This document shows positions 1-14,039 of a stretch of DNA of 14,039 nt, one piece after another (position 1 is the first letter of the stretch; every line of letters begins with the position of its first letter). The stretch is from Candidatus Sigynarchaeum calidifontis. Lineage in GTDB: Archaea; Asgardarchaeota; Lokiarchaeia; Sigyniarchaeales; Sigyniarchaeaceae. Below the pieces are notes generated by a model that saw only the letters and a program-made list of their open reading frames with translations, was not told the origin of the DNA and did no database searches. The position numbers were made by a program, and so were the translations under genes. The stretch spans positions 1 through 14,039 of the forward strand of contig JAUQYZ020000067.1 of NCBI GenBank assembly GCA_030587475.2, given 5' to 3'.

Positions 1-1223
1 TCCTCGATCCGGGCCACCGACATGAGCTCGTTCTGGGCGCAGATCATGATGGCCTTGCCCCGCTTGACCGTGCCGTCGGCTTGGTTCAACCGGCCCGTGC
101 GCCCGATGCGGTGGATGTAGTTCTCCGCGTATTGCGGCACGTCGTAGACGATCACGTGCGTGATGTTGGGGATGTCGAGCCCCCGGGATGCCACGTCGGT
201 CGCGATCAGGTGGTGGATCTTGTGCGCCTTGAAATCGTTGATGATGCGCTCGCGCCGCTTCTGGCTCACGTTGCCGGTCATGGCGAGAATCGGGAAATGG
301 AAGTCCTCGGTCAACCGCTTCTCGAGAAACTCGACGCCCGATATCGTGTTCGTGAAGATGAGGCAGTGCTGTGGCTTCTCCTCTTGAATGATCTTCTTGA
401 GCATAGCATACTTGTGGTTGCGATCGAGCACGACGTACTTGACCTGCTCGATCTCGTCCACGACAAATTCGTCCTCGTTCTTTCCGATGCGGATGATCGT
501 GTTCTTGCCACGCGTGATGGCGTGGATGCTTTCGAGGATCTCCTGGAAGATCGTCGCGGAGAACAAGAGCATCTGCACGTGATCGCGCGGGAGCTTGCTG
601 AAGAGATACTCGATGTCCGGGAAAAAGCCCATATCGAGCATGCGATCGGCCTCGTCGAGCACGACTGTCCGGACGGTCGAAAAATCGAGGTAATTCTGCT
701 TGTAGAGATCGATGAGCCGCCCGGGCGTGGCCACGACGATGGCGATTTCCCCGTACGAGAGGCCGTCTTTTTGCTTGCCATAATCGACGCCGCCGTAGAT
801 CTCGAGCACGTTGATCTTGAAGGGGCGGCCGAGGGCACGCATGGTCTCGGCGTCTTGCAAGCATAGTTCCCGCGTCGGCACGAGCACCACGGCCTGCACG
901 GCCTTGATGTTCGGGTCGATCTTGTCGATGATGGGTGCCGTGAACGCCAGGGTCTTGCCCGTGCCTGTCTTGCTTTGCGCGACGACGTTGTGGCCGCGCA
1001 AGGCGAGCGGAATGGCTTTAGCTTGGACCTCCGTGGGTTTCACGAATCTCATGGTTTCAAGGATGCGCGGCAATTCCTTTTTGCGCCACTTGATATCGTA
1101 GAACGAGCGAATCACTTTATCGTCCGATCCCGCATGGATCGCCGGCATAACATCGTGATAAGGCGAGCCATGACTCTCCCGCCTCTGGCGGGCGTGATCG
1201 TCTTTCCATTTCGAGTTATCCAT
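1..1223 (-). CDS. DEAD-box ATP-dependent RNA helicase (3' end outside window)
   Basis: Hand translation from ATG at 1223 (in-frame TGA upstream): MDNSKWK...PTEVQ (Q motif), SKTGTGKT (motif I), VPTREL (Ia), YGG, ATPGRL (Ib), LDEADRMLDMGF (II), FSAT (III), LIFTNT (IV), ATDVASRGLDI (V), YIHRIGRTGR (VI). The frame stays open to position 1. Confidence 0.97.
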   Translation of the reverse strand, partial: MDNSKWKDDHARQRRESHGSPYHDVMPAIHAGSDDKVIRSFYDIKWRKKELPRILETMRFVKPTEVQAKAIPLALRGHNVVAQSKTGTGKTLAFTAPIIDKIDPNIKAVQAVVLVPTRELCLQDAETMRALGRPFKINVLEIYGGVDYGKQKDGLSYGEIAIVVATPGRLIDLYKQNYLDFSTVRTVVLDEADRMLDMGFFPDIEYLFSKLPRDHVQMLLFSATIFQEILESIHAITRGKNTIIRIGKNEDEFVVDEIEQVKYVVLDRNHKYAMLKKIIQEEKPQHCLIFTNTISGVEFLEKRLTEDFHFPILAMTGNVSQKRRERIINDFKAHKIHHLIATDVASRGLDIPNITHVIVYDVPQYAENYIHRIGRTGRLNQADGTVKRGKAIMICAQNELMSVARIE

Positions 1224-1303
1224 GAAAAGTACACTTTCGTTGCGTTTCAGTACACTGCGAAACGATCACGGTTAGCGTTTTCGTTGCCTTGTGCTGTCTA
1301 CGC

Positions 1304-1340
1304 GTTTTTAAGTAAACCCTCCCATAAATCCCTTTTCAAG
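1304..1340 (-). promoter_or_regulatory. Candidate BRE/TATA promoter of the helicase
   Basis: Minus strand reads CTTGAAAAGGGATTTATGGGAGGGTTTACTTAAAAAC. The GAAAAGG(G)-WTTTA pattern also occurs before the oxidoreductase operon (2767) and the mevalonate cluster (8189). Confidence 0.5.
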
Positions 1341-1511
1341 CCCGGGTGCTATCGCGGTCGATCCCTCGATATTATGCTCATGTATTGTTCTGGATAATAT
1401 TCGCCTCCTTAGCCCCGGTATCTCGAGAAGAATACCAGAGCAATACACGCGAATCCCGCGTGGCATATACTCGACCCACCTACCAAAAAAACTAAAAAAC
1501 GTGAAAAAACC

Positions 1512-1688
1512 ATGCACCTGATCACCGTACATCTCCCGGAAGCATACCTCGAAGGACTTGACAGCCTCGTGAACGAGCGCATCTATCCGAACCGCTCGGA
1601 AGCCATCCGCGTCGCCGTGCGCGATATGCTCAAGACCGAACTGTCCATGTTCTTGAAGCAAGCCGAGAAAGCCGAGCAGATAGAGTAA
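1512..1688 (+). CDS. Ribbon-helix-helix (CopG/MetJ-like) transcriptional regulator, CdrS-like, 58 aa
   Basis: MHLITVHLPEAYLEGLDSLVNERIYPNRSEAIRVAVRDMLKTELSMFLKQAEKAEQIE*: alternating N-terminal beta-strand (LITVHL), helix A, then YPNRSEAIR helix B, typical of archaeal CdrS-type RHH proteins. Confidence 0.92.
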   Translation: MHLITVHLPEAYLEGLDSLVNERIYPNRSEAIRVAVRDMLKTELSMFLKQAEKAEQIE

Positions 1689-1704
1689 ACGCCCGTTATC
1701 ACGA

Positions 1705-1745
1705 TTTTTTTTTCCCGTGCTTTTCCTTCCCGCCCTTTTCTTTCA
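1705..1745 (+). terminator. Oligo-T/pyrimidine-rich archaeal terminator
   Basis: T9 run at 1705-1713 followed by a pyrimidine tract, just after the RHH stop and between convergent genes. Confidence 0.6.
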
Positions 1746-1773
1746 TTAAGACTTGAAAAATAGAAGTTCTTTC

Positions 1774-2673
1774 CTATTGTTTCGTGGTCTCCTTGCGTAA
1801 TGGTTCCTCGATTTTACTTGTCTCGACCACTTTTTCCTTGCGGAACGCGGTCGAAAGCACGACGCCGACGATGGCGATGGATATGCCGGTAACTTGAAAC
1901 GCGGTAGGGGATACGCCGTAAAACAAGGCCTCGAGCACGAGCGGGAGGAGGACATAGAACACGGTATATGCCGGGACGACCGTGACCGCCTTTCCTCTCG
2001 TGTACCCGACGTTCGTGAGTAATAGCGCTGCCATACTAGCAGCGAACGAGATGTAGAAGAAGACATTCGCAAAGCCGCTGAACGCGCCGAGATCGATGGT
2101 TGTGCCGACATCCTTGGACATGCTCTTGAAGACGTTGTCGAGCCCGCCGCAAGAACCTGCAACAATGCCCCAGATCAGTCCCCACAAGCGCTTGGTGCGT
2201 GCCGTGTAGAGGATGATCGCCGCGAAGATGGCGCCGATCGTGATCATCGACATGACAAAGTTATACCACGTCATCGTCCTCGTGGTGGGCCGTTCCCAGA
2301 AGATCGAGGCGATCCCGAACAGGAACGTCCCGCCGACAATCATGACCGCGCCCGCCAGCTCGTACATCCCGATGGGTTCCTTTAACACCTTGTACGCGTA
2401 GACGATAACGACCACGATGCCGAGACCCATCATCGCAGAGTACACGGTCGCCGGCGCGCCGAGGATCGTCTGTGCCACGATCTGGAACACTGGCTGCACC
2501 GCTGAAAACGAGATGCCGACGAGCCAGATGACCCCTTTCTTTGCACGGGCATTTCCTGCCATTTTCTCCTTCTGGAACAGCTGGATGCCTTGCTTTTGGA
2601 GGGCTTTACCAAGGTTCAGCGTGCCCGCCATTGCCAAGCCGAACACGATGCCCCAAACGACCTTTTCATCCAT
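1774..2673 (-). CDS. DMT-superfamily membrane transporter, NIPA (Mg2+ transporter)-like
   Basis: About 9 hydrophobic segments. Motifs LGKALQKQG, IWLVG, APATVYSAMMGLGIV..YKVLKEPI..E..G...I.GG and LTNVGY...KAVTVVPAY resemble DMT/NIPA proteins. ATG at 2673 lies about 10 nt after GGTGA; the alternative start is TTG at 2682. Confidence 0.75.
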   Translation of the reverse strand: MDEKVVWGIVFGLAMAGTLNLGKALQKQGIQLFQKEKMAGNARAKKGVIWLVGISFSAVQPVFQIVAQTILGAPATVYSAMMGLGIVVVIVYAYKVLKEPIGMYELAGAVMIVGGTFLFGIASIFWERPTTRTMTWYNFVMSMITIGAIFAAIILYTARTKRLWGLIWGIVAGSCGGLDNVFKSMSKDVGTTIDLGAFSGFANVFFYISFAASMAALLLTNVGYTRGKAVTVVPAYTVFYVLLPLVLEALFYGVSPTAFQVTGISIAIVGVVLSTAFRKEKVVETSKIEEPLRKETTKQ

Positions 2674-2766
2674 GGTTTTCAATTCACCTTAGATGATAAC
2701 GCGACGTCGGGCGCATAAAAACAGATATGAGCAAGATCGGAGGATCGGTTATCGAATTGATGGCTT

Positions 2767-2781
2767 GAAAAGGATTTAAAA
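2767..2781 (+). promoter_or_regulatory. BRE + TATA box of the oxidoreductase operon
   Basis: GAAAAGGA-TTTAAAA in the divergent intergenic region, about 100 nt before the ATG at 2884. Confidence 0.6.
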
Positions 2782-2883
2782 CAAGCAGCCAAAGGTCAAA
2801 TGACAGAAGCGGGTGAACGATGCTTCCATCGGAGCCGCGTTGAAGGTTGATGCACCCCCGCGTTTCCCCCACTGGTGACACGC

Positions 2884-3162
2884 ATGCCGAAATTGCTAAC
2901 GAAAAGGAAAAAGGTCTTGTTTTTCCAGAAGAATCGGTGCCAGGGCTGCGAGATGTGCGTCGTGGCATGTCCGACCGGCGTGCTCGAGCTCTCGGACGAG
3001 TACAACATGCGCGCTGCTCAAATTCCTAAAATCAAGGCCGGCAAGGAGAAATCATGCATATTGTGCCAGCGGTGCGAGTTCGCGTGCCCGAACTGGGCGA
3101 TATACGTGATCGACGAGCAACCGGTCGAAAAGACACCTGCCGGGGAGGTTGCAAAGGTATAG
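2884..3162 (+). CDS. korD: 2x[4Fe-4S] ferredoxin, delta subunit of 2-oxoacid:ferredoxin oxidoreductase
   Basis: CQGCEMCVVACP and CILCQRCEFACP motifs; GGTGA at 2874-2878 before the ATG at 2884; first gene of the OFOR operon. The symbol denotes the family; substrate is not established. Confidence 0.92.
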   Translation: MPKLLTKRKKVLFFQKNRCQGCEMCVVACPTGVLELSDEYNMRAAQIPKIKAGKEKSCILCQRCEFACPNWAIYVIDEQPVEKTPAGEVAKV

Positions 3163-3185
3163 CTGCCGCCGCGAGATGAAACATC

Positions 3186-4364
3186 ATGATTAACGAAGCA
3201 AAACGATACATGGCCCCTGGCAAGCACGTCTTGATGGGCAACGTTGCCATGGCCGAGGGTGCGATGGCCGCCGGTCTCACGTTCTTCGGCGGGTACCCGA
3301 TCACCCCGTCCACCGAGGTGCCCGAGCACCTCGTCTCTCGCCTTCCCGAAACGGGTGGCGCCTTCATCCAGATGGAGGACGAGCTGGCGGCAATAAACGC
3401 AGTGGCCGGGGCGAGCGTCGCGGGCGCCAAGGCCATGACCGCGACGTCGGGCCCCGGCACGTCGCTCATGGCCGAGACGATATCCATGGCCGCGGCGATG
3501 GAAATCCCCCTCGTTATATGCGATGTGCAGCGGAACGGCCCCGGTACGGGCCTGGTCACGGCTCCGCACCACAACGACGTGTTCCAGTGCAAGTACAGCG
3601 GCAATGGAGAGTACGAGGTCATCGCCTACGCTCCCATGTCTTGCCAGGAGTTATACGATCTCACGATCGAGGCTTTCAACGCCGCGGAGACCTATCGCTG
3701 TCCCACGTACATCATGTCCGACGCGTACCTGGGTCACTTGCACGAGCAAGTGATAATCCCGCCCGCGGTAGAGGTCAAGAAGCGCGTTATCGACAGGAAA
3801 ATCCTTGATAAGCCGAATCCTGAGAAATTTACCTTCATGGACAGCCAAGGGACTATCCATATCCCTCCGCCTCCTGTCCTCGGCACTCCCAACTTTCCAA
3901 CCACGTTTATATCACAGCCACACGGTCCCGACGGTATCCCGGTCAATGAGGACCAGGTCTTGAAACCTAATACCTTGTTGGTCGAAAAGATCACGAAAAA
4001 TGTCGAGAAAATCGCCAAGACGGAGACATATATGCTCGAAGATGCGGAGATCGTCCTCATCGCATATGGCCTGACAGCACGAGTTTGCTACCATGTCGTG
4101 AACACGGCTCGGAAGCAAGGCTTGAAGGTTGGCCTGTTCCGGCTCGTGACGCTCTGGCCATTCCCCTATGACCGCGTGAAGAAAGCCATCGCGAAAGCGA
4201 AGGTGGTCATCGTTCCCGAAATGAACCTCGGTCTTATGGCGGGCGAGGTCGAGCGTTGCAAGCCGCTGGAAACCCCGATGTACAAGGTCCCGAAGATCGC
4301 CGACATCCACGAGCCAGGCGAGATCATGGCCGTGGTAAAAAAAGCAAACGAGGTGCCGGCTTGA
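3186..4364 (+). CDS. korA: 2-oxoacid:ferredoxin oxidoreductase alpha subunit
   Basis: GN.AMAEGA, GYPITPSTE, QMEDELAAI, TATSGPG, EIPLVI.DVQR.GP, TLWPFP and PEMNLG motifs. Confidence 0.95.
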   Translation: MINEAKRYMAPGKHVLMGNVAMAEGAMAAGLTFFGGYPITPSTEVPEHLVSRLPETGGAFIQMEDELAAINAVAGASVAGAKAMTATSGPGTSLMAETISMAAAMEIPLVICDVQRNGPGTGLVTAPHHNDVFQCKYSGNGEYEVIAYAPMSCQELYDLTIEAFNAAETYRCPTYIMSDAYLGHLHEQVIIPPAVEVKKRVIDRKILDKPNPEKFTFMDSQGTIHIPPPPVLGTPNFPTTFISQPHGPDGIPVNEDQVLKPNTLLVEKITKNVEKIAKTETYMLEDAEIVLIAYGLTARVCYHVVNTARKQGLKVGLFRLVTLWPFPYDRVKKAIAKAKVVIVPEMNLGLMAGEVERCKPLETPMYKVPKIADIHEPGEIMAVVKKANEVPA

Positions 4365-5251
4365 TGTCCCCGCAGATAACGACATATCCCAACGAGAAGC
4401 CGGAGCTCCAGCTCACCCTTCAAACGATGGGCGGGCTCATGACCGGCAATTTCTGGTCCTATTTTTGCGGAGGTTGTGGCTATGGCATCATCTTCCACTT
4501 GTTCGACAAGGTGTTCATCGAGGAGAGGCTTGACCCGTTCAAATTTCCCGTGATCATTGGCATCGGTTGTTACACGCAAGGGAACACGCTGGTGCCTGCC
4601 TCGGCGCAGCGCGTCACGACACTCCACGGCCGGGCTCCCGCCATGGCGACGGGCATAAAACTTGCCAACCCCGCACTGAAACCGATCATCCTCACGGGCG
4701 ATGGCGACTGTCTCGGCATCGGTGGCAACCATTTCATCCATTTATGCCGCCGCAACCTCGACACGGTCGTCCTACTCTTCAACAACTCGATCTATGGCAT
4801 GACCGGCGGGCAAGTGGCACCGACGACGCCTCCGGGGGCATCCACGATGACGACGCTCGGGCCGGTTTTCGAGAACCGCATGGACGGCGTGAAGTTGGCG
4901 CTCGCAGCCGGAGCCACCTACGTGGCGCGGACGACCGTCGCCCACCCGCGCACGTTCATGCGGTACCTCAAAAAAGCTATCAAGCACCAGGGCACGTCAG
5001 TCATTGAGGTCGTATCGCCATGCGTCACGTATTTCGGCCGCAAGAACGTGAACGACGAGGGACAGCGCATGGACACCGGCGGGGCACTCCTGGACTGGAT
5101 CAAAATGCGAACTATATGGAACAACCAGGCCAAACTCCTGAGCGAGGCCGAGCTGGCCGACAAGTACATCATCGGTGAATTCCGCGAGGAAGTCCGGCCC
5201 GAGTACGCGGTTGAATACGAAAAAGTCAAGAAAAGGGCCATGGAGGGATGA
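4364..5251 (+). CDS. korB: 2-oxoacid:ferredoxin oxidoreductase beta (TPP-binding) subunit
   Basis: CGGCG, GIGC, LHGRA, GDGD..GIGGNH, NNSIYGMTGGQ.APTT and SPCVTY motifs. The start overlaps the alpha stop (TGATG at 4362-4366). Confidence 0.95.
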   Translation: MSPQITTYPNEKPELQLTLQTMGGLMTGNFWSYFCGGCGYGIIFHLFDKVFIEERLDPFKFPVIIGIGCYTQGNTLVPASAQRVTTLHGRAPAMATGIKLANPALKPIILTGDGDCLGIGGNHFIHLCRRNLDTVVLLFNNSIYGMTGGQVAPTTPPGASTMTTLGPVFENRMDGVKLALAAGATYVARTTVAHPRTFMRYLKKAIKHQGTSVIEVVSPCVTYFGRKNVNDEGQRMDTGGALLDWIKMRTIWNNQAKLLSEAELADKYIIGEFREEVRPEYAVEYEKVKKRAMEG

Positions 5252-5255
5252 TGAG

Positions 5256-5861
5256 ATGAACAGGTACGAGATCCATGCCGTTGGCCTCGGGGGGATGGGC
5301 GTCATCCAGCTTTCCAAGCTCATCACGAAAGCAGCCGTTAACTACCAGGATCTCATTGCCGTGCAGACCGAAGCCTACAGCGCGCAAGCACGTGGCGGTA
5401 GCTGCTGGGCAGACGTGGTCGTCGAGCTCGACAAGGCCGAGAAAATGATCGACTACCCCAAGGCGCTGAGCCCGTACGACTTCGTCTTCGTGCTATCCGA
5501 GGAGGCTGCCGCGAGCGTGAAAAAAAACGATGTAAAGGATACCGGGTGGGTGCTCTGGGACTCTTCCATCATCAGCAAGTTTCGTGTGGCTTCCAAGCTG
5601 CCCTCGCTTGCCATACCCGCGCAAGAGATGGCGATCAAGGAGTTTGGCGAATCTGTCATCGGCAGCTCTATCTTGTTCGGCGCGTTCTGCAGCTTGTCGG
5701 GCATCATTTCCAAGGACGCCGCGCTGAAGACCCTGGAGGCGTCGGTGCCGAAGAACAGCGCGGAGAAGAACCTCGCCGCCTTCGAGAGGGGCTGGGACCT
5801 CGGTGAAAAGAGAAAGACCGAGCCGCGCATTCCCGAAAAGCCGGAAAAGGAGAAGAAATAG
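5256..5861 (+). CDS. korC: 2-oxoacid:ferredoxin oxidoreductase gamma subunit
   Basis: GLGGMGV, QTEAYSAQARGG.C..DVV, IDYP and N..AFERG motifs; ATG at 5256 follows GGAGG, 4 nt after the beta stop. Confidence 0.93.
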   Translation: MNRYEIHAVGLGGMGVIQLSKLITKAAVNYQDLIAVQTEAYSAQARGGSCWADVVVELDKAEKMIDYPKALSPYDFVFVLSEEAAASVKKNDVKDTGWVLWDSSIISKFRVASKLPSLAIPAQEMAIKEFGESVIGSSILFGAFCSLSGIISKDAALKTLEASVPKNSAEKNLAAFERGWDLGEKRKTEPRIPEKPEKEKK

Positions 5862-5870
5862 GGGATCACC

Positions 5871-7679
5871 ATGGTCGGAACTATCAAAAAAGGCTGGAAG
5901 GAACTCAAGGCGGAGATCGTCGACACTGGGAAATGTTGCCTCTGCGGGGCGTGCGTAAACTTTTGTGACAACTTGATGATGACCCCCGCCGGCCCGGCAG
6001 AACAAAGCATGCTATGCAGCGACACGTCCACGTGCCGCGAGGGCTTCGGTACTTGCTATAACTTGTGCCCCTACACCGGAACCGGCGAGCTCCCCATCGC
6101 CTTGCTGGACAAGTGGGTGCACGACCGGCTTTCACAGGACCCTGATAACGAGTTCAAGCACGACGTCGCGATCGTGGCAGCTCGATACACCGGCTCAAAG
6201 GGAAATGCAAGGTTCTCTGGTGGCGGCGCGGAGGTAGGCCTTCTCATCGCGGCGCTCCGTGCCGGCATCATCGACGGCGTCATCACGTCCTTTATCGGTT
6301 CGGATATCCCTTCCGTCGTGGACACGGAGGACGGTATACTGCAATCTGCCCACGCGACCGCCTTTGCCAACGCGCCGCTCGCGGGGATCTCGGCGGCGCT
6401 CGAAAGCGGTTATGAAGCACTCGCCATCGTTGGAAGCGGGTGCGAGATACAAGCCTTGCGCAAGATGCAAAACCACCCGCGAGTGGATCTGGAGATCCAC
6501 GATCTCGTCACCCTCGCGATCGGGTCGTTCTGCTTTTTCATGCCGAAACCAGACAAGTTCACCACGTATCTCCAGGCAAGAAACATCGACCGGGCTGCGA
6601 TCCGGTGGATCGGCCACGACAAGAGCCCGTTCAAGTACGCGATCGACGCTGGGGGCGAGGCAACAGTCGTTCCCCTCAACGAGCTGTACGAGGCTTGCGC
6701 GAAAGGGAGCTGTTTTTCGTGCGCGGACGGCACCGCGGGCCTCGCGGACATCAGCGTGGGCGTCGTGGACGCGCTGCCCGGGTGGAGCGTGTTGATCGTG
6801 CGCACGGCGAGGGGGTTTCAAGTGCTGGATGCCGCCAGGCGGCTCGGTCTTGTTGAAACGCAAGGGCTGAATAACATCGTCAAGGAAACCGTGCTCGAGG
6901 TCACCCGGAACAAGCTCGTTTTCGCGCCGATCGTTTCCATCCGGGACGAGGGCGTTGACATGAAGACGTTCATGTTCTCCGCCCCTACCATCGCGAGAAG
7001 CTATAAACCGGGCCAGTTCGTCGTTTTGTGGCTTCCAGACATCGACTTCTTGCCCATGGGCATCGCGCACGTGTCTGGTGATCACGTCGAGATCACGGTG
7101 CAGCGGGTCGGCGAGGGCACGGGCGCGCTCTTCAAAATGCAAGTAGGCGACAAGGTGGGCATCCGGGGGCCATACGGGAACGGGTGGGACTTGAGCAAGG
7201 ACGATTACCTGGCCGTCGGGGGTGGTGTCGGCATCGCGGAGATATCGAACGCGATCGACGACCTCGTGGCGCGTAACAAGCGGGTGACGGCCATTCTCGC
7301 GGGCAGGACAAAAGATCACGTGTTTTGCGACGATCTATATGAAGGCAAGATCCAGCAAGTATGCATCATGACGGACGACGGTTCCGCCGGGGCAAAGGGT
7401 TTTGCCACGGATGCTGTTGAAAAACTCGTGAAAGAAAACGGGATAAAGAACATCATCACGTGTGGCCCTGAAATAATGATGAAAAAGGTGGTCGATATCG
7501 CTCGCCGCCTTGGCATAGCCGTGCAAGCCAGCATCGAGCGAAAGATGAAATGTTGCGTCGGATTGTGCGGGACTTGCTGCGTTGGCGAGAATAATGACGT
7601 GGCTATTTGCAAGATGGGACCCGTGTTCGACCAGGACAAGTTGGCGAGATTCCCAAGCTTTGGCACTTACAAGAAATAA
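5871..7679 (+). CDS. Fusion: ferredoxin + FrhB/FpoF-family (F420 hydrogenase/dehydrogenase beta) domain + PyrK-type dihydroorotate dehydrogenase electron-transfer (FAD/NAD, [2Fe-2S]) domain
   Basis: N-half: CCLCGACVNFC, C..TCYNLCP, GG...GLLIAAL, AIVGSGCEIQALRK, IGSFC, CFSCAD.TA.LADISVG, GWSVLIVRT. C-half: PGQFVVLWLP, RVGEGT, GIRGPYGNG, VGGGVGIA, TDDGS.G, CGPEIMMK, ERKMKCCVGLCGTC..C..GPVF. One uninterrupted frame. Confidence 0.9.
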   Translation: MVGTIKKGWKELKAEIVDTGKCCLCGACVNFCDNLMMTPAGPAEQSMLCSDTSTCREGFGTCYNLCPYTGTGELPIALLDKWVHDRLSQDPDNEFKHDVAIVAARYTGSKGNARFSGGGAEVGLLIAALRAGIIDGVITSFIGSDIPSVVDTEDGILQSAHATAFANAPLAGISAALESGYEALAIVGSGCEIQALRKMQNHPRVDLEIHDLVTLAIGSFCFFMPKPDKFTTYLQARNIDRAAIRWIGHDKSPFKYAIDAGGEATVVPLNELYEACAKGSCFSCADGTAGLADISVGVVDALPGWSVLIVRTARGFQVLDAARRLGLVETQGLNNIVKETVLEVTRNKLVFAPIVSIRDEGVDMKTFMFSAPTIARSYKPGQFVVLWLPDIDFLPMGIAHVSGDHVEITVQRVGEGTGALFKMQVGDKVGIRGPYGNGWDLSKDDYLAVGGGVGIAEISNAIDDLVARNKRVTAILAGRTKDHVFCDDLYEGKIQQVCIMTDDGSAGAKGFATDAVEKLVKENGIKNIITCGPEIMMKKVVDIARRLGIAVQASIERKMKCCVGLCGTCCVGENNDVAICKMGPVFDQDKLARFPSFGTYKK

Positions 7680-7767
7680 TGAACGGGTCGAGCGCTTGGT
7701 TTCCCGATACTCTTTTTTATGTCTCGTTGCTTTACCACCCACGTATCAAACGAGTCGTGAGCGTTGT

Positions 7768-8130
7768 ATGGCTGAAGAACGAGCCGGAAGGCCGAGTATT
7801 CCCGATCGCTTTCGTGAATTCTGGCAAAACACTAAGCGGATCGTGCGCGTCGCCCGCCGTCCGACGTTTCAAGAGGTTCGTCTCATCGCACGAGTAAGTG
7901 GTATCGGGATCTTGCTTGTCGGCGCGGTCGCCTATCTTCTCCAGATTCTCGGCAGTTTCACGAGCGAATTCTTCAAGCCGGAGACAACATCAACCGGCGG
8001 GGCACTCGTCGTCGTCCTCATGCATTTCGCAGCACATGTGGCGCCGGCGATCCTCCGAGCAGGTCTGAACCCGGCTCTGATCACGATGGTCGTTGGCATC
8101 ACGCTAGCCGCGATCGGCAATAAAAAATGA
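7768..8130 (+). CDS. secE: Protein translocase subunit SecE/Sec61gamma with C-terminal extension (120 aa)
   Basis: Amphipathic helix FREFWQNTKRIVRVARRPTFQE followed by TM helix IARVSGIGILLVGAVAYLLQIL, matching the archaeal SecE pattern R.L..A.KP...E...IA...G.G...G. Start taken at ATG 7768. Confidence 0.88.
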   Translation: MAEERAGRPSIPDRFREFWQNTKRIVRVARRPTFQEVRLIARVSGIGILLVGAVAYLLQILGSFTSEFFKPETTSTGGALVVVLMHFAAHVAPAILRAGLNPALITMVVGITLAAIGNKK

Positions 8131-8188
8131 GGCGGCGTGTGTCCGGTTCTTATCCAGACCTTTAATAACCGTTCTTGCAGAATACTCG

Positions 8189-8204
8189 GAAAAGGGTTTA
8201 TATT
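8189..8204 (+). promoter_or_regulatory. BRE + TATA box upstream of the mevalonate cluster
   Basis: GAAAAGGG-TTTATATT, near-consensus archaeal promoter; a second TATA-like TTTTATAA lies at 8301-8308. Confidence 0.65.
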
Positions 8205-8358
8205 AAGACCCCTTTAGAGGTCATATAGAACCACGGGCGCTCGTTGGTTCCTTTCTATTAAATCGATCGAAAAACAATGATCTATCTGTTTGATCGTGAA
8301 TTTTATAATTGATCGTGACGAACTGGCAACCTTCTCTCGAGATCGGTGATCACGTCTC

Positions 8359-9963
8359 TTGACAATCGATGATGCATTCTTTCTCAACGTGGGCATCGAT
8401 GCGGTCGGGTTTTACGCGCCCAGATTTCGTCTCTCGCTGGAGGATCTCGCCAAGAAGCGCGGTGTTGATCCGCAGAAATATCGTCAAGGCTTGCTTGCTG
8501 AAGAATTCGCCGTGCCTGATTATGGCGAGGACGCGATTTCCATGGCGATCATGGCCGCGCAGAATGCCATCGCCCGGGGAAAGATCAACCCGAAGGAGAT
8601 CGATGCGATATTCGTCGGCAGCGAGTCATTGCCATATGCCGTGAAATCTATCGCATCCATCTTGTCCGGATTCCTTAATATCCAAGAAAATGCGTTTACA
8701 GGTGACACTCTCCATGCTTGCGCAGGGGCCACGCTCGGCTTGTTGAATGCCGTTGGTCTCGTGAACAGCGGTATCATCAACAAGGCGCTGGTCATCGGGA
8801 CGGATATTTCGAAGTACCCGCTCGGCTCGTCCGGGGAAGCAACGCAAGGTGCTGGTGCCGCGGCGATGGTCATATGCAAGAACCCGCGTATCGCGCGGAT
8901 CGGGTCCAAGTTCGGCAAGGTCTCCGGGCACGTCGACGACTTTTTCAGGACGCTCTACAGCGAAAACGCGGAGGTCTTCGGGCAGTATAGCACTGTCGCA
9001 TACTTGAACTTCGTGCTCAAGGCATACGACAATTTCAAGAGCCAGGTCGGGCCTTTTCTCGCGGACTATTATGTTTTCCACGCGCCGTTTGGCAAGATGC
9101 CCATCAAGAGCTTCCAGCGCATCATGTTCGAGCGCTGGTTCGATGATCCTGTAAAAATGAAATTAATGCTTGCCAAGGCGGAGGAACGCGAGTATAGCCA
9201 GCAAGAGCGCGAGATGGTACTGTCAGGAAAGGAAGAGCTACAGATCTCGACGATCACGATGTTACGGGAGAGAGGCTTTCAGGAAAATGAAATCATCGGG
9301 CTCAACTATTTCTACAAGGACTGGCTCGCGCTGAAACTTTTGCCGTGCCTCGATGTCCCCATGCGCTTCGGTAATTGTTATTCTGCTTCCTTGTGGGCGC
9401 AACTTATGCACATTATGGAAACGCGTGTCAAGGAAAACGACATCATCTACTTCACGAGTTACGGGAGTGGGGCAACGGCGATATCGGGATTGTTCAAGAT
9501 GCAACCCGGCTTCAAGGCGCAAGTTACCCCCGGCCCAACCGTTCTTGATTACATAAAAAAGCGCCAGAGAATCCCTATAGAATATTATGAAATGTATAAA
9601 AGGGATTTAGTTCCCGGCTTCATCCACGTGGGGCACGTGAAGCCAGCGCCCGAGAACGTTTCCTTCTTAAAAATCACGCAATGCGAGCGCGGATGCGTCT
9701 TGCCTACTCAAGAAGAAATCCGCCGGTGTCCACAAGGGCATGCAGGCGTGCACGAGTACTCCTACCCGATGGTCGGCATTGTCGAGAGGATAGACGAAAT
9801 GGACGTTGAGATCGCGGATCACGTGCACGTGGATTCTGTATTCTTGATCGGCGACATCAAAGCCGGAAACCGGGTAGAACTAGCCATTCGCCGCCTAAAA
9901 GTCGATTCAGATAGCGGCTTGATTCACTGGTACCCTTGCTTCGTTAGCAGTTCAACTACTTGA
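8359..9963 (+). CDS. mvaS: Hydroxymethylglutaryl-CoA synthase with C-terminal DUF35-like Zn-ribbon/OB-fold domain
   Basis: GIDAVGFYAP, RGVDPQKY..GL, EDAISMA, GSES (catalytic E), HACAGAT (C), GEATQGAGA, DFFR, FHAPFGKM (H), GNCYSAS, SYGSG; about 100 extra C-terminal residues with CERGC..CPQGH. TTG start follows GGTGA at 8345-8349. Confidence 0.93.
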   Translation: MTIDDAFFLNVGIDAVGFYAPRFRLSLEDLAKKRGVDPQKYRQGLLAEEFAVPDYGEDAISMAIMAAQNAIARGKINPKEIDAIFVGSESLPYAVKSIASILSGFLNIQENAFTGDTLHACAGATLGLLNAVGLVNSGIINKALVIGTDISKYPLGSSGEATQGAGAAAMVICKNPRIARIGSKFGKVSGHVDDFFRTLYSENAEVFGQYSTVAYLNFVLKAYDNFKSQVGPFLADYYVFHAPFGKMPIKSFQRIMFERWFDDPVKMKLMLAKAEEREYSQQEREMVLSGKEELQISTITMLRERGFQENEIIGLNYFYKDWLALKLLPCLDVPMRFGNCYSASLWAQLMHIMETRVKENDIIYFTSYGSGATAISGLFKMQPGFKAQVTPGPTVLDYIKKRQRIPIEYYEMYKRDLVPGFIHVGHVKPAPENVSFLKITQCERGCVLPTQEEIRRCPQGHAGVHEYSYPMVGIVERIDEMDVEIADHVHVDSVFLIGDIKAGNRVELAIRRLKVDSDSGLIHWYPCFVSSSTT

Positions 9964-10005
9964 ACCCGCGTTCACTCTTTCCATTTAACCTCACTCACCA
10001 CATCG

Positions 10006-10013
10006 TTTATTAA
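10006..10013 (+). promoter_or_regulatory. Possible internal TATA box before the UbiD-family gene
   Basis: TTTATTAA about 40 nt upstream of ATG 10053, preceded by a small hairpin (TGAAC-CCGC-GTTCA, 9961-9974) and a pyrimidine tract after the synthase stop. Confidence 0.4.
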
Positions 10014-10052
10014 CCACAAGACAATAGGAGAACCAGCAACGGATGACCTACC

Positions 10053-11423
10053 ATGGAATTTCGTGAGTTCCTTTCATTCTTGAAAAAAAATGGGATGCTT
10101 ATCGAGATAGAAAAGACATGTTCCACGAACCTGGAAATCGCATACGAGATTAAAACACACGAGGGCAAACCCGTTCTTTTCACGAGCGTGAAGGGGCATA
10201 CCATCCCCGTGGCAGCGAACTTGTTCGGGTTCAGGGGCGCGTTCTCGATCGGGACGATAAGCCCGGCTGAATTGAAAGAAAAATCCGGTGCCGCCCTCTT
10301 GGGGGAGAAGCGGCTTCCCGCGACCGATCCACGTTCATTCATCAACAAGCTCTACAAGGCGATCGAAGGCCGAAAGAAACCGGAAGCGATCCTCGCAGGA
10401 CAACCCGCTCCTTGCCAGGAAATCATCGATAAGCCTGGCAATCTCGATTCGCTTCCCATCCTCAAGCACTTGCCCGGCGACGGGGGCAAGTACATCACGT
10501 CTGGCGTTGCGATCTACACGTGCCCGAAGTACGGGCGGAACATCAGCTTCCACCGCATGATGGTTCTCGACCGGAAGCGAGCGGTAACCCGGGTCGTGGA
10601 AAACCGTGGGCTCGACACGGCCATCAAGGAGAAGAAGGGCGAACCGCTCGAGGCCGCCATCGTCATCGGCAATTCCTCGCAAGTCATGATCGCGGCATCC
10701 ACGAGCCCACCGAAGGGTGTCGACGAGCTCTCCATAGCTAACGCGATCTCGCCGTTCAAAGTCGTGAAATGCCGTACTGTTGATGTCGAAGTACCGGTCG
10801 AGTCGGAGATCGTGATCGAGGGGCGTTTTCTTGAAGAGCGCGTGGATGAGGGTCCTTTCCTCGACTTGACGGGCACGTATGACATCATCCGCAAGCAGCC
10901 CGTGTTCGAGGTCACTTGCATCACGCGGCGCAAGGACGCAATCTACGAAGCTCTCAACCCGGCGAGCCTGGAACACCAGCTACTCATGGGCCTCCCCCGG
11001 GAAGCCACGATGCTTGCGGAACTCTCGAAGTTCGACTATGTCAAGGACGTGCGGATGACGGCCGGCTCTGCACACTGGTTCAACGCCGTCGTGCAAGTCC
11101 ATCGGGACAAGGAGATTGACCCCGAGAGCATCATCCAGGCGTGTTTCAAGGGGCATGGCAGCTTGAAAAACTGCACCATCGTGGATGATGACATCGATAT
11201 CGACGACCCGAACGACGTGGAATTTGCCATCACGACCCGAGCACAATTTGACAAGAACCTTTACCTGTACCCGAAGCAACAAGGAAGTTCGCTCGACCCT
11301 TCGGCAAACCAGATAACACGCGAGACGTGCAAGGTGGGCATCAACGCGACCGTCCCGCGATCGGGGCATGGTGCCGGGTACAACAAGAATTACAGCAGGA
11401 TTTCCTATTCCAACAAGGAATGA
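10053..11423 (+). CDS. UbiD-family decarboxylase, probable trans-anhydromevalonate 5-phosphate decarboxylase (prFMN-dependent)
   Basis: LPILKH..GDGG.YITSG, N.SFHRM, ESEIVIEG, EGPFLDLTGTYD, VDDDIDI.DP.DVE.AI.TR, GSSLDPS, KVGI.AT; clustered with AcnX subunits and HMG-CoA enzymes. Confidence 0.92.
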   Translation: MEFREFLSFLKKNGMLIEIEKTCSTNLEIAYEIKTHEGKPVLFTSVKGHTIPVAANLFGFRGAFSIGTISPAELKEKSGAALLGEKRLPATDPRSFINKLYKAIEGRKKPEAILAGQPAPCQEIIDKPGNLDSLPILKHLPGDGGKYITSGVAIYTCPKYGRNISFHRMMVLDRKRAVTRVVENRGLDTAIKEKKGEPLEAAIVIGNSSQVMIAASTSPPKGVDELSIANAISPFKVVKCRTVDVEVPVESEIVIEGRFLEERVDEGPFLDLTGTYDIIRKQPVFEVTCITRRKDAIYEALNPASLEHQLLMGLPREATMLAELSKFDYVKDVRMTAGSAHWFNAVVQVHRDKEIDPESIIQACFKGHGSLKNCTIVDDDIDIDDPNDVEFAITTRAQFDKNLYLYPKQQGSSLDPSANQITRETCKVGINATVPRSGHGAGYNKNYSRISYSNKE

Positions 11424-11444
11424 CGCGGTGCGAGCTGGTGACGC

Positions 11445-12707
11445 ATGACAAAAAACGATGCTGACGTGGCCATGTCGCGGATGCTCGCCGGCGAATCCGG
11501 CGAGGGCACGCAGATCGCCGCGGAGATGATAGCCGCGCTCGCGAAGATCTACGAAGCGGAAGGCTACGTGCCCATTGTTTCCGCGCAGATCGCTGGTGTA
11601 TCGTATAAAAACATCGGCGAGGCTGGTATCGAGTTCCTGGAAACGATGCGGAAAGGAGGGGCAAAAACTCGTGCTCGTGCCACGCTGAATCCTTGTGGTC
11701 TCGACCTCGAGGCATGGCGCGAGCTCGGCTTTCAAGAGCAGTTTTACAAGGATCAAAAACGTGCGCTCGACGCGTACCAGGGTCTCGGCATCGAGATGAC
11801 TTGCAGCTGCACCCCTTACTTGATAGGCAACGCGCCAGGCCTCGGCGAACACGTCGCATGGAGCGAATCATCGGCATTATCCTACGCGAATTCAGTGCTC
11901 GGGGCGCGAACCAACCGCGAGGGTGGCCCGTCCGCGCTGGCAGCGGCGATCACCGGTTTCACGGGGAATTACGGCTTGCATCTCGATAAGGAGCGGGTGC
12001 CAACCGTTCACGTTCACGTCACTTGTCCCATCGAGACATATCAGGATTTCGGCAGCTTGGGCTTGATGCTCGGGAAAAAACTCGGACAAGCCGTGCCATT
12101 CATCACGGGCATGCAACCGGGGCACTGCACGCTTGAACGGCTGCGCCAGCTCGGTGCATCGATGGCCGCGAGCGGCGCGGTCGCGCTCTACCACGTAGAT
12201 GGGGTCACACCCGAGGCACAACTTTTTTCAAAGAAGGTGGCAAGCGGCGAGATCACCACCCGTCTCATCGAAATTCCGTCGCTCGACGACGTTGCCGACG
12301 TGATCCCTTCGGATCACGAGGGACGAGCCACGGCTGTCGACCTCGTGTTTGTTGGGTGCCCGCATGCGTCGAAGGAACAAGCACTGGATATCCTCGAGTC
12401 ATTGAAAGGGATCGAGCTGAAAGCAGACTTGTGGATCGCCATGGCGCGCGAAGTGAAACGCGAGGTACTACAAAATGAGTCGCTCGTGAGAGCCATGTCC
12501 CCGCGCGTCAAGCTCGTGTCCGACACGTGCATTGTCGTTTGTCCGATCGACGATCTCGGCTATTTTTCCGTCGCCACGAACTCGGGCAAGGCATATTTCT
12601 ATCTCAAGAACAATCCAAAGCTGGCGGTTGCGCACCGCGACACAGCGGCATGCATCAACGCGGCGATTACCGGTATCGTGGCCGGCAAGCACGGGAGGGG
12701 ATCGTGA
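11445..12707 (+). CDS. Aconitase X catalytic subunit, probable phosphomevalonate dehydratase large subunit
   Basis: GVSY.NIG.AG, TLNP, CSCTPY, AWSESSA..YANSVLGARTNREGGPSALAAA.TG, GCPH, DTC.VV.P, TNSGK; mevalonate context. Confidence 0.94.
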   Translation: MTKNDADVAMSRMLAGESGEGTQIAAEMIAALAKIYEAEGYVPIVSAQIAGVSYKNIGEAGIEFLETMRKGGAKTRARATLNPCGLDLEAWRELGFQEQFYKDQKRALDAYQGLGIEMTCSCTPYLIGNAPGLGEHVAWSESSALSYANSVLGARTNREGGPSALAAAITGFTGNYGLHLDKERVPTVHVHVTCPIETYQDFGSLGLMLGKKLGQAVPFITGMQPGHCTLERLRQLGASMAASGAVALYHVDGVTPEAQLFSKKVASGEITTRLIEIPSLDDVADVIPSDHEGRATAVDLVFVGCPHASKEQALDILESLKGIELKADLWIAMAREVKREVLQNESLVRAMSPRVKLVSDTCIVVCPIDDLGYFSVATNSGKAYFYLKNNPKLAVAHRDTAACINAAITGIVAGKHGRGS

Positions 12708-13105
12708 TGGCCCGGTTAAAAGCACGCGTGATCTGTAACGGGGACGTGTCGGGGCAAGTCTTGTTCACGGACAAGCCCTTGCTCATCTACACGGGGATCG
12801 ACACGTCGACCGGCAAGATCGTGGAGCGAGGCCACCCTTTGAATGGCATTTCGGTGGCGGGCCGCATCCTCGTTTTTCCCGAGGCAAAAGGCTCGACCGT
12901 CGGGTCATGGACCCTGCTCCAGCTCAAGAAGAATGGCATCGCCCCGGCGGCAATCGTGAACCGGCTTTGCGAGCCGATCGTTGCCATCGGTGCCATCATG
13001 GCTCGCATCCCTTGCTTTGACAAGGTGGACATCACCCCCCTTCGTGACTGCAAGCAAGTGACCATCGCCGGCGGCGAGATAATCCTCAACGAAAACTTGA
13101 AATAG
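12707..13105 (+). CDS. Aconitase X swivel (DUF126) subunit, probable phosphomevalonate dehydratase small subunit
   Basis: GID..TG.I.E.GHPL.G.SVAGRILVFP..KGSTVGS, APAAIV, EPIVA.GAI.A.IP; the start overlaps the large-subunit stop (TGATG at 12705-12709). Confidence 0.94.
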   Translation: MARLKARVICNGDVSGQVLFTDKPLLIYTGIDTSTGKIVERGHPLNGISVAGRILVFPEAKGSTVGSWTLLQLKKNGIAPAAIVNRLCEPIVAIGAIMARIPCFDKVDITPLRDCKQVTIAGGEIILNENLK

Positions 13106-13133
13106 GGGTTTTAAAACGGTAACCACGTCAAAT

Positions 13134-14039
13134 TTGGACAAGCTCTACAAGAAATCGATCCAGGAACGCCTCCAAACCATCGCGAACGCATGTAACTTGC
13201 CGCCGGAGGCAGTTTCGACGCTCGAGAAGAGCATGGATCCCGCCATGGCGAAGATCCTCGATTCGATGAGCGAGAACGTGATCGGGGCATTCCAGCTCCC
13301 CCTGGGGATCGCGACCAACTTCATTATCAACGGCAAGGAGCGCCTCGTGGCCATGGCCATCGAGGAACCGTCGGTCGTGGCCGCTGCATCGAACGCTGCC
13401 CGCATCGCCCGGCCGTACGGCGGGTTCGTGGCAGACCCCGTGAAGAGCCTCATGATCGGCCAGGTGCAGCTCGTCGACGTGAACGATGCGAATGCCGCGA
13501 TCGCCACGATCAAAAAGCAAGAGAAACGAATCCTGGAAAAAGCAAACGATCAAGATCCTGTACTTGTAAAAGCCGGCGGCGGGGCGAAGCGCGTCGAAGC
13601 TTTCAAGATTGACACGAGCATCGGGGCAATGGTCGACGTGCATATCGTTGTTGACTGTTTAGATGCAATGGGTGCAAATGCCGTGAACACGATGGTCGAG
13701 AAGGTGGCACCGCTGATCGATGAAATCACTGGCGGCCGACCCCTCTTGCGCATCATCTCGAATCTAGCGGTACATCGAGTGGCTCGTGCAAGGGCAACGT
13801 TCGACAAGGAACTGCTCGGTGGTCCGGACGTGGTGGCTGCGATCATCGAAGCGGTCGAATTCGCAAACAACGACATGTACCGTGCCGCGACGCACAACAA
13901 GGGTATCATGAACGGGATTACAGCTGTTGTTCTCGCGACAGGCAATGATACCCGCGCGGTCGAGGCGGGAGCGCATGCATACGCTGCCAGATCCGGGCAG
14001 TACTCATCTCTATCAAGATATGAGATCGACAGCAACGGG
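13134..14039 (+). CDS. mvaA: Class II hydroxymethylglutaryl-CoA reductase (3' end outside window; start uncertain, TTG 13134 or ACG 13116)
   Basis: Hand translation: LYKKSIQERL, ENVIG...LPLGIA.NF.ING, MAIEEPSVVAAASNAA, MIGQVQ, GGG, DAMGANAVNT..E, RIISNL, YRAATHNKGIMNG, ATGNDTRAVEAGAHAYA. Confidence 0.96.
   Translation, partial: MDKLYKKSIQERLQTIANACNLPPEAVSTLEKSMDPAMAKILDSMSENVIGAFQLPLGIATNFIINGKERLVAMAIEEPSVVAAASNAARIARPYGGFVADPVKSLMIGQVQLVDVNDANAAIATIKKQEKRILEKANDQDPVLVKAGGGAKRVEAFKIDTSIGAMVDVHIVVDCLDAMGANAVNTMVEKVAPLIDEITGGRPLLRIISNLAVHRVARARATFDKELLGGPDVVAAIIEAVEFANNDMYRAATHNKGIMNGITAVVLATGNDTRAVEAGAHAYAARSGQYSSLSRYEIDSNG

Follow-up and report, generated by a model that had tools for sequence, protein, structure and literature searches.

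Where do the electrons of a 2-oxoacid:ferredoxin oxidoreductase (OFOR) go when its operon closes with a gene for a ferredoxin-like, FrhB-like and PyrK-like fusion protein? The question is raised by a stretch of 14,039 nucleotides (nt) from Candidatus Sigynarchaeum calidifontis, an Asgard archaeon of the Lokiarchaeia (GenBank assembly GCA_030587475.2, contig JAUQYZ020000067.1, positions 1 to 14,039, forward strand). This whole stretch is called the window here, and the 602-amino acid (aa) protein encoded at 5871-7679 (plus strand) is called the fusion. No archaea known are closer to eukaryotes than the Asgard archaea, and models of eukaryogenesis rest on how they dispose of reducing equivalents, that is, which electron carriers are used and whether the electrons leave as H2, formate or acetate. 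We propose, with moderate confidence, that the fusion is a fifth, epsilon-like electron-output subunit that makes the KGOR-like four-subunit OFOR encoded upstream NAD(P)+-linked. Coenzyme F420 is perhaps a further acceptor beside NAD(P)+.

Domain architecture of the fusion

The fusion gene is one intact open reading frame. Three parts are distinguished in the protein:

5871..6110, plus strand: fusion residues 1-80, ferredoxin-like; two 4-Cys motifs, C22/25/28/32 and C49/55/62/66; aligned with the N-domain (two clusters) of 8RIU_B and 8RJA_E
6111..6905, plus strand: fusion residues ~81-345, FrhB-like core; [4Fe-4S] ligands C191/221/281/284; flavin loops SGGG (116-119) and ATAF (162-165), both non-canonical; PF04432 match; Foldseek match 8RIU_B
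6906..7679, plus strand: fusion residues ~346-602, PyrK-type FAD barrel, NAD(P) Rossmann domain and all-Cys [2Fe-2S] motif (C561/566/569/580); NF000796 match; Foldseek matches 5JCA_S, 5KSW_B and 1EP1_B; archaeal PyrK motifs

In Pfam searches FrhB_FdhB_C (PF04432) matched residues 182-333 with 88 bits (cut-off 23), NAD_binding_1 matched residues 449-541 and DHODB_Fe-S_bind matched residues 556-591. FrhB_FdhB_N (PF04422), the flavin subdomain of FrhB/FdhB/FpoF flavoproteins, aligned to residues 102-160 with 18.6 bits, which is under its cut-off of 22 bits. A precomputed PF04422 match is missing in most of the nearest homologues (P0002-P0010, P0012 and P0013) and present in a more distant clade. 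The C-terminal half scored 250.2 bits with NF000796, the PyrK equivalog of NCBIfam; the match spans residues 352-602 (from about nt 6924) and passes the cut-off of 224, by which this half is a member of PyrK. The GltD-like domain that carries the bifurcating FAD and the NADP(H) site in NfnB was not found in the fusion with Pfam or NCBIfam.

The cysteine ligands are strongly kept. Among 48 homologues C22/25/28/32, C49/55/62/66, C191/221/281/284 and C566/569/580 are invariant, and C561, kept in at least 90%, completes the PyrK-type all-Cys [2Fe-2S] site with the last three. The C-terminal domain of FrhB is recognized by the PF04432 match, the four [4Fe-4S] cysteines and the motif CxxC.D...ADIS.G; its residues C191/221/281/284, D286, D293, S295 and G297 are conserved in the fusion family. 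Comparison of the C-terminal half with eight archaeal PyrKs shows that PGQF, PMS, GIRGPYGN, GGGxGxA, TDDGS, TCGPE and SLERxMKC are all kept, and the FNR-like (ferredoxin-NADP+ reductase-like) FAD barrel, the NAD Rossmann domain and the 4-Cys [2Fe-2S] site of PyrK are all present in this half.

An AlphaFold2 model of the whole chain, built from the 48-sequence alignment, has a mean pLDDT of 87 and a pTM of 0.87, which suggests that the domains may be held in a fixed mutual arrangement. In Foldseek searches of the PDB the best matches of residues 7-340 were 8RIU_B (TM-score by target 0.78), the zeta subunit of carbon monoxide dehydrogenase (CODH) of Ca. Ethanoperedens thermophilum, and 8RJA_E, a subunit of formylmethanofuran dehydrogenase (Fwd) of the same organism (TM-score by target 0.76-0.78 for the two). 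The C-terminal half matched the NfnI small subunit 5JCA_S best, followed by PyrK 5KSW_B and 1EP1_B (TM-score by target 0.83 for 1EP1_B) and sulfhydrogenase gamma. A PDB sequence search returned the same partners for both halves, with E about 1e-29 for 8RIU_B and 8RJA_E. The three-part architecture that a preliminary description, made from the sequence alone, had read from this frame is thus borne out by Pfam, NF000796, the cysteine motifs and the folds.

The FrhB-like subunits of Ca. Ethanoperedens consist of an N-terminal two-cluster ferredoxin domain and a FAD/[4Fe-4S] F420-reductase domain; they dock on enzymes usually regarded as dependent on ferredoxin, which thereby come to reduce F420 (Lemaire et al., 2024, PMC11493965). 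8RIU_B and 8RJA_E share with the fusion a two-[4Fe-4S] ferredoxin N-domain and a one-[4Fe-4S] FrhB core, and they are likewise encoded with an enzyme that normally uses ferredoxin, which they retarget. The fusion has the same two modules, aligned over residues 7-340, and is encoded with a partner enzyme. Its N-terminal half is a member of this group of FrhB-type adaptors for ferredoxin-dependent enzymes, and the novelty is the fused PyrK module. The fusion differs from 8RIU_B and 8RJA_E in having an OFOR as partner, in not keeping QDGG and G(T/S)xY in the flavin loops, and in carrying a PyrK FAD/NAD/[2Fe-2S] module at the C-terminus. The recently discovered principle of FrhB-type adaptors would in this way be extended from CODH and Fwd to OFORs.

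The C-terminal half has the fold, the archaeal motifs and the all-Cys [2Fe-2S] site in common with PyrK (1EP1_B, 5KSW_B, NF000796). Unlike PyrK, the fusion is not a stand-alone protein, has no adjacent pyrD, coexists with a separate pyrD-pyrK pair in its genome and lacks the usual archaeal C-terminal tail.

Conservation of the OFOR operon and distribution of the fusion

The fusion gene closes an operon for a complete OFOR:

2875..3162, plus strand: OFOR delta subunit, 95 aa, ferredoxin-like with two [4Fe-4S] clusters; Fer4_7, Fer4 and related Pfam matches; OorD NF007205 63 bits; alternative ATG at 2884
3186..4364, plus strand: OFOR alpha subunit, 392 aa, KGOR-like; POR_N and PFOR_II matches; NF006412 406 bits; nearest structures 1YD7, 8YS5 (2-oxoglutarate synthase) and 6N2N
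4364..5251, plus strand: OFOR beta subunit, thiamine pyrophosphate (TPP)-binding; TPP_enzyme_C and KorB-type NCBIfam matches; nearest structure 8YS5_C; ATG overlaps the alpha stop (TGATG)
5256..5861, plus strand: OFOR gamma subunit; POR Pfam match; NF006323 119 bits; ATG 4 nt past the beta stop

The genes are tightly spaced. Alpha and beta overlap in TGATG, the gap between beta and gamma is 4 nt, and the ATG of the fusion at 5871 follows the gamma stop codon (TAG, 5859-5861) after a gap of 9 nt. For the synteny comparison the OFOR subunits of the window were searched by tblastn against 27 loci (20 species genomes and seven contigs that are metagenomic or from metagenome-assembled genomes). In each of the 27 loci the gene immediately before the fusion is OFOR gamma. 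Twenty-three loci are of sufficient length to show a full operon, and 22 of them have delta, alpha, beta and gamma together, at identities down to 41%. In the homologues the junction between gamma and the fusion is a 4-nt overlap or a gap of 1-4 nt (1-9 nt if the window is counted). The fusion adjoins pyrD in none of the 27 loci. The preliminary description had placed the fusion 9 nt after the gamma stop at the end of an OFOR operon and had suggested that synteny with the OFOR genes be examined; the coordinates and the 27 loci agree with that placement.

Identity to the window across the loci is highest for alpha and beta (57-62%), lower for the C-terminal half of the fusion (46-52%) and lowest for its N-terminal half (35-38%), which is the fastest-evolving portion of the operon. 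One locus (G135) has beta, gamma and the fusion in a row, with no alpha or delta beside them. There an unrelated 646-aa gene with a match to the zinc-finger family DUF4379 (G135:C98, L043:919-2859) stands before beta in the place of delta and alpha. Insertion, rearrangement or misassembly may each explain this arrangement.

Could the fusion be co-expressed with the OFOR and yet work unbound, as a free-standing ferredoxin:NAD(P)+ oxidoreductase that reoxidises the soluble ferredoxin pool? The N-terminal two-cluster domain could be a docking site for ferredoxin, soluble FpoF is a ferredoxin:F420 oxidoreductase in Methanosarcina, and one locus is found without adjacent alpha and delta. That the fusion follows gamma without exception (27 of 27 loci), with codons that overlap or abut, points instead to stoichiometric assembly, and the homologous adaptors are stably bound in 8RIU and 8RJA. 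We give little weight to this explanation.

About 55 full-length homologues (596-614 aa, 41-100% identity) came from a word-indexed search. All the named ones are labelled as Asgard (Sigynarchaeota, Lokiarchaeia, Promethearchaeota and one 'Thorarchaeota'). Most of them are publicly annotated as 'dihydroorotate dehydrogenase electron transfer subunit', a name that is misleading for metabolic reconstructions. In an exhaustive HMMER scan of 1.84 billion representative proteins both halves were spanned by these Asgard clusters only. Strong matches outside these clusters are ordinary PyrKs (~260 aa); a few are longer, and those tested proved to be PyrD-PyrK or PyrK-N-terminal fusions; a wider occurrence of the FrhB-PyrK architecture was rejected on this ground. 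In a phylum sample of 300 genomes the full-length fusion gene is present in 43 of the 68 sampled genomes of one family, which belongs to the same order as the genome of the window. It was not found in any other family of that sample, where the matches were of PyrK length only.

The possibility that two genes had been misread as one was also rejected. Of the thirty-six nearly full-length matches in other genomes, 35 are free of internal stops and one contains a single TAG; the shorter ones are cut off by contig ends. The homologues and sampled genomes gave neither a split form nor close stand-alone halves. A stop at the junction in relatives, which the preliminary description had named as the sign of two separate genes, was not among the changes seen.

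The closest stand-alone relatives of the N-terminal half (~29-30% identity) adjoin OFOR-family genes. A Ca. Alkanophaga FrhB-like gene is directly upstream of an IorA-like gene, and one from Dehalococcoidia is directly upstream of a POR_N gene. An FrhB paralogue of ANME-1 clusters with pyruvate:ferredoxin oxidoreductase (PFOR), and F420 reduction was proposed for it (Chadwick et al., 2022, PMC9012536). The ANME-1 'FrhB6' and the Ca. Alkanophaga gene resemble the present case in that a gene of the FrhB family in an OFOR-family cluster has been proposed as a dedicated electron exit. They differ from it in being stand-alone proteins of ~370 aa with no PyrK module and ~29% identity to the N-terminal half, and their role is known as a proposal.

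Stand-alone ferredoxin-FrhB-like genes of this kind, beside other ferredoxin-dependent enzymes, were seen at L026:6001-9025, L027:6001-7916 and L039:2409-7113. The examples are the Ca. Alkanophaga and Dehalococcoidia genes just described and a metagenomic gene in a cluster for aldehyde:ferredoxin oxidoreductase and acyl-CoA synthetase. This suggests a wider family of FrhB-type adaptor subunits.

Literature searches returned no description of an FrhB-PyrK fusion, and the papers on Asgard metabolism and on archaeal fusions that mention FrhB are silent on this protein. The earlier statement that no characterised protein has this architecture still holds: no paper with FrhB plus PyrK was found, and the 1.84 billion representatives contain both halves in Asgard clusters only. 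The fusion extends a known principle, by which accessory reductase modules retarget ferredoxin-dependent oxidoreductases, and the FrhB core plus PyrK is a new combination. The same functional logic, an OFOR core with a flavoprotein module that delivers electrons to a pyridine nucleotide, is found in phenylglyoxylate:NAD+ oxidoreductase PadEFGHI of Azoarcus and in the pyruvate:NADP+ oxidoreductase of Euglena. The added modules of these two enzymes are not known to be related to FrhB-PyrK; the NCBIfam matches of the fusion include no homology to them.

PyrK-like and FrhB-like paralogues in the same genome

The window contains no pyrD, nfnB or hydrogenase gene by Pfam and NCBIfam searches, in agreement with the preliminary description. 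The source genome (4.99 Mb, 89% complete) has a canonical pyrD on contig C116, followed immediately by a pyrK of its own whose product reaches 267 bits with NF000796. On contig C218 an NfnA-NfnB pair is found beside gdhA. In that region (L005:3-3109, minus strand) the NfnA-like and NfnB/GltA-like genes are directly downstream of the gene for an NADP-type glutamate dehydrogenase. Because separate pyrD-pyrK and nfnAB pairs are present on other contigs, the fusion is a third PyrK-like paralogue which is needed neither as PyrK nor as NfnA. Seven further OFOR or indolepyruvate oxidoreductase alpha-like genes are found in the genome, and the fusion accompanies only the OFOR of the window.

These data bear on the function given in the databases, an ordinary PyrK for dihydroorotate dehydrogenase B with an inert N-terminal half. 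NF000796 is matched over its equivalog cut-off and the public annotation agrees. The usual partnership of PyrK, in a heterotetramer, with a PyrD encoded in the adjacent gene is not seen for the fusion, since pyrD on C116 has its own canonical, higher-scoring pyrK; all twelve cysteines of the N-terminal half are invariant, and the fusion is always found after OFOR gamma and never by pyrD. It was concluded that the pyrD-pyrK pair, the invariant cysteines and the OFOR synteny effectively refute an ordinary PyrK with an inert N-terminal half, to which we attach next to no probability. A third role offered in the preliminary description, an F420-linked partner for a PyrD encoded elsewhere, fails because the PyrD of this genome has its own adjacent PyrK on C116.

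Genes for F420 biosynthesis are present. CofD and CofH scored over their cut-offs, a CofG-like gene adjoins CofH, and a CofE-like gene was also found. The preliminary description had named pyrD, a second pyrK and F420 biosynthesis genes as worth locating in the genome. The F420-dependent enzyme Mtd is encoded as well (372 bits). Fno/NpdG (F420H2:NADP+ oxidoreductase) was not found in this 89%-complete genome.

Two other FrhB-related frames of the genome were observed. A frame of 940 aa (G000:C108:26292-29111, L010:946-3465) is another FrhB fusion; it joins a two-cluster ferredoxin domain and a canonical FrhB N plus C core to a C-terminal DUF362 domain. A frame of 318 aa (G000:C175:24888-25841, L012:1012-1965) combines the end of a pyridine nucleotide-disulfide oxidoreductase with the last ~65 positions of the FrhB C-terminal domain.

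The flavin site of the FrhB core and the possible role of F420

Three loops enclose the FAD of Methanothermobacter FrhB: 23-30 (with the conserved QDGG, at the pyrophosphate), 71-77 (G73-T77) and 131-138 (PMC3930138). The G73-T77 loop is equated here with the G(T/S)xY (GTKY) motif of our alignments. By HMMER alignment SGGG of the fusion falls on QDGG and ATAF falls on the GTKY loop, and the fusion therefore has neither of the two canonical flavin loops. A MAFFT alignment that included 51 other FrhB-like proteins has 38 columns with a conservation of 85% or more. All the FrhB cysteines are retained in the fusion family, as are the C-terminal CxxC.D...ADIS.G motif and the R and G positions. The tyrosine of G(S/T)xY is present in 100% of the 51 other proteins and is lost throughout the fusion family, and G96, V121, P190, L219 and E290 are further changed positions. 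The clade of the window, in which these loops vary a good deal, has GGGAEAGLL and x-T-x-F; EAGPITALL and GYKPSQSP are the sequences in the larger clade. QDGG is changed in both clades, and AGTKW is kept in two members (P0026 and P0041).

Judged from these alignments, the flavin pocket of the FrhB core is remodelled. Loss of the flavin from the N-terminal half is plausible rather than certain, because the GG and the aromatic residue are partly kept. The loops are non-canonical in the fusion while four FrhB paralogues of the same genome keep QDGG/QNGA and G(T/S)xY, and the F420 role of the fusion is therefore uncertain. The same holds for the single-chain F420H2:NAD(P)+ transhydrogenase of the preliminary description: the organism can make F420, as that idea needs, but both flavin loops of the fusion are non-canonical and those of the four paralogues are canonical. 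The non-canonical loops and the PF04422 score below its cut-off favour NAD(P)+ as the main exit.

The distribution of F420 biosynthesis among relatives was tried as a test of F420 use and proved uninformative, with CofH nearly universal in the family irrespective of the fusion. In the fusion-bearing family (f2) CofH is found in 86 of 102 genomes, whether or not the fusion is present. The sister family (f3) has CofH in none of 14 genomes and the fusion in none of 7. Five fusion-bearing genomes gave no full CofH match; three of them have CofD over the cut-off and two have contig-end fragments only.

If the core still reacts with F420, two further explanations have to be weighed. The first is an OFOR that reduces F420 in the manner of CODH and Fwd of Ca. 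Ethanoperedens and gains an F420H2:NAD(P)+ transhydrogenase activity from the PyrK module, so that two independent exits would exist; this is the electron-routing module envisaged in the preliminary description. The 8RIU/8RJA precedent, the FrhB6 paralogues of ANME-1 that cluster with PFOR (PMC9012536) and the failure to find Fno in the 89%-complete genome all speak for such an enzyme. The non-canonical flavin loops, on the other hand, count against it, as does the N-terminal half as the fastest-evolving part (35-38% identity versus 57-62% for alpha and beta). We regard it as quite unlikely.

The second is an Nfn-like enzyme with flavin-based confurcation or bifurcation, in which reduced OFOR or ferredoxin and NADH together reduce two F420. 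The F420-binding flavin of the FrhB core would stand between a low-potential branch (three [4Fe-4S] clusters to OFOR or ferredoxin) and a high-potential branch ([2Fe-2S], FAD and NAD(H)), and the product would feed the F420-dependent steps of the tetrahydromethanopterin Wood-Ljungdahl pathway. NfnI/NfnAB, an NADH-dependent ferredoxin:NADP+ oxidoreductase, offers the model (5JCA, 4YLF). Like the fusion, it combines a PyrK-like FAD/[2Fe-2S]/NAD module with another Fe-S module, which links it to electrons at the ferredoxin level. The fusion differs from NfnAB in that the second module is FrhB-like and not a GltD-like NfnB, in being a single chain, and in being in an operon with an OFOR. The parallel topology (one module like PyrK/NfnA and another with flavin, Fe-S and a site for a hydride carrier), the top structural match of the C-terminal half (5JCA_S, the small subunit of NfnI), the presence of F420 biosynthesis and Mtd with no Fno found, and AGTKW in P0026 and P0041 agree with this explanation. 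So does the family contrast (CofH in 86 of 102 genomes of f2, with the fusion; CofH 0/14 and fusion 0/7 in f3), but this co-distribution amounts to one phylogenetic contrast. In addition, the tyrosine of G(S/T)xY is lost family-wide, QDGG is altered in both clades, the loops are variable in the clade of the window, and a true nfnAB pair is already present in the genome. An Nfn-like enzyme of some kind is unlikely. Less likely still is its specific form, in which fusion and OFOR are an F420-dependent analogue of NfnAB and the FrhB-core flavin confurcates 2-oxoacid electrons with NADH, through the PyrK module, into two F420H2. If confurcation were true, fermentative Asgard archaea that lack Fno and Frh-type routes would gain both NADH reoxidation and a drive for the F420-dependent Wood-Ljungdahl steps.

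Proposed electron route

We return to the fusion as an NAD(P)+-linked output subunit. It would be physically attached to the OFOR. Electrons from the TPP site would exit through the clusters of the delta subunit and pass to the N-terminal two-cluster ferredoxin-like domain of the fusion, then to the [4Fe-4S] cluster of the FrhB core. From there they would reach the [2Fe-2S] cluster and FAD of the PyrK module, directly or through the remodelled flavin, and this FAD would reduce NAD(P)+. The net reaction would be 2-oxoacid + CoA + NAD(P)+ -> acyl-CoA + CO2 + NAD(P)H with no free ferredoxin. The direction of flow, the acceptor and the 2-oxoacid used are part of the proposal.

We prefer this role because the operon is tightly spaced with the gamma-fusion order in 27 of 27 loci, because the best matches of the N-terminal half are the CODH and Fwd adaptors (8RIU_B and 8RJA_E) that dock by the same two-cluster N-domain, and because the nearest stand-alone FrhB-like relatives adjoin OFOR-family genes. 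The C-terminal half keeps every archaeal PyrK motif, a separate PyrK and NfnA exist in the genome, and the AlphaFold2 confidence over the whole chain suggests a fixed domain arrangement. A sink that passes OFOR electrons to NAD+ and/or F420 had been one of the functions offered in the preliminary description; it is supported in that it fits the conserved synteny and the precedent of 8RIU and 8RJA.

Several points weigh against the proposal. Putting electrons of -500 mV onto NAD(P)+ would be a waste of energy for a fermenter. The GG of QDGG is partly kept and an aromatic residue is found at the GTKY tyrosine, so the flavin, and hence reactivity with F420, may persist. The organism has F420 biosynthesis and the F420-dependent Mtd with no Fno found; since F420 is made and used, there is a physiological need for an F420 link. 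The G135 locus, where alpha and delta are not beside beta, gamma and the fusion, also belongs on this side.

The operon suggests that, in a whole Asgard order, one 2-oxoacid oxidoreductase does without free ferredoxin and delivers its electrons to NAD(P)+ and/or F420. If true, the redox balance assumed for Asgard amino-acid fermentation would change.

OFOR substrate and neighbouring genes

Among solved structures, those closest to alpha and beta are the 2-keto acid:ferredoxin oxidoreductase 1YD7 of P. furiosus, 2-oxoglutarate synthase 8YS5 and 2-oxoglutarate oxidoreductase (OGOR) 6N2N; pyruvate enzymes are farther. Because both subunits are closest to 2-oxoglutarate-type enzymes, our best guess for the substrate, from sequence comparison, is 2-oxoglutarate or a broad range of 2-oxoacids. 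An OFOR that converts pyruvate to acetyl-CoA for the adjoining mevalonate cluster was considered. The idea is weak, given that the enzyme is closer to those for 2-oxoglutarate, and it is further weakened by the limitation of the mevalonate neighbourhood to the closer clade of loci.

The left end of the window encodes a DEAD-box helicase and an EamA transporter on the minus strand. Downstream of the fusion are SecE and then the mevalonate cluster (HMG-CoA synthase, UbiD, the large and small subunits of AcnX, and class II HMG-CoA reductase). The archaeal-type cluster is complete at 8359-14039 (plus strand) in the window, and was also seen at L021:10387-17794 and L022:10477-17836. In the relatives it continues with mevalonate kinase, followed by a gene of the amino-acid kinase family (PF00696). 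The mevalonate neighbourhood is kept in homologous loci at 56-63% identity and not in the more distant clade. The SecE/Sec61-gamma match (7582-8130, plus strand) covers only residues 74-125 of a 182-aa frame. The same frame has a weak match to the HXXEE family of Pfam (24.5 bits, cut-off 25), and the gene may exceed the normal length of archaeal SecE.

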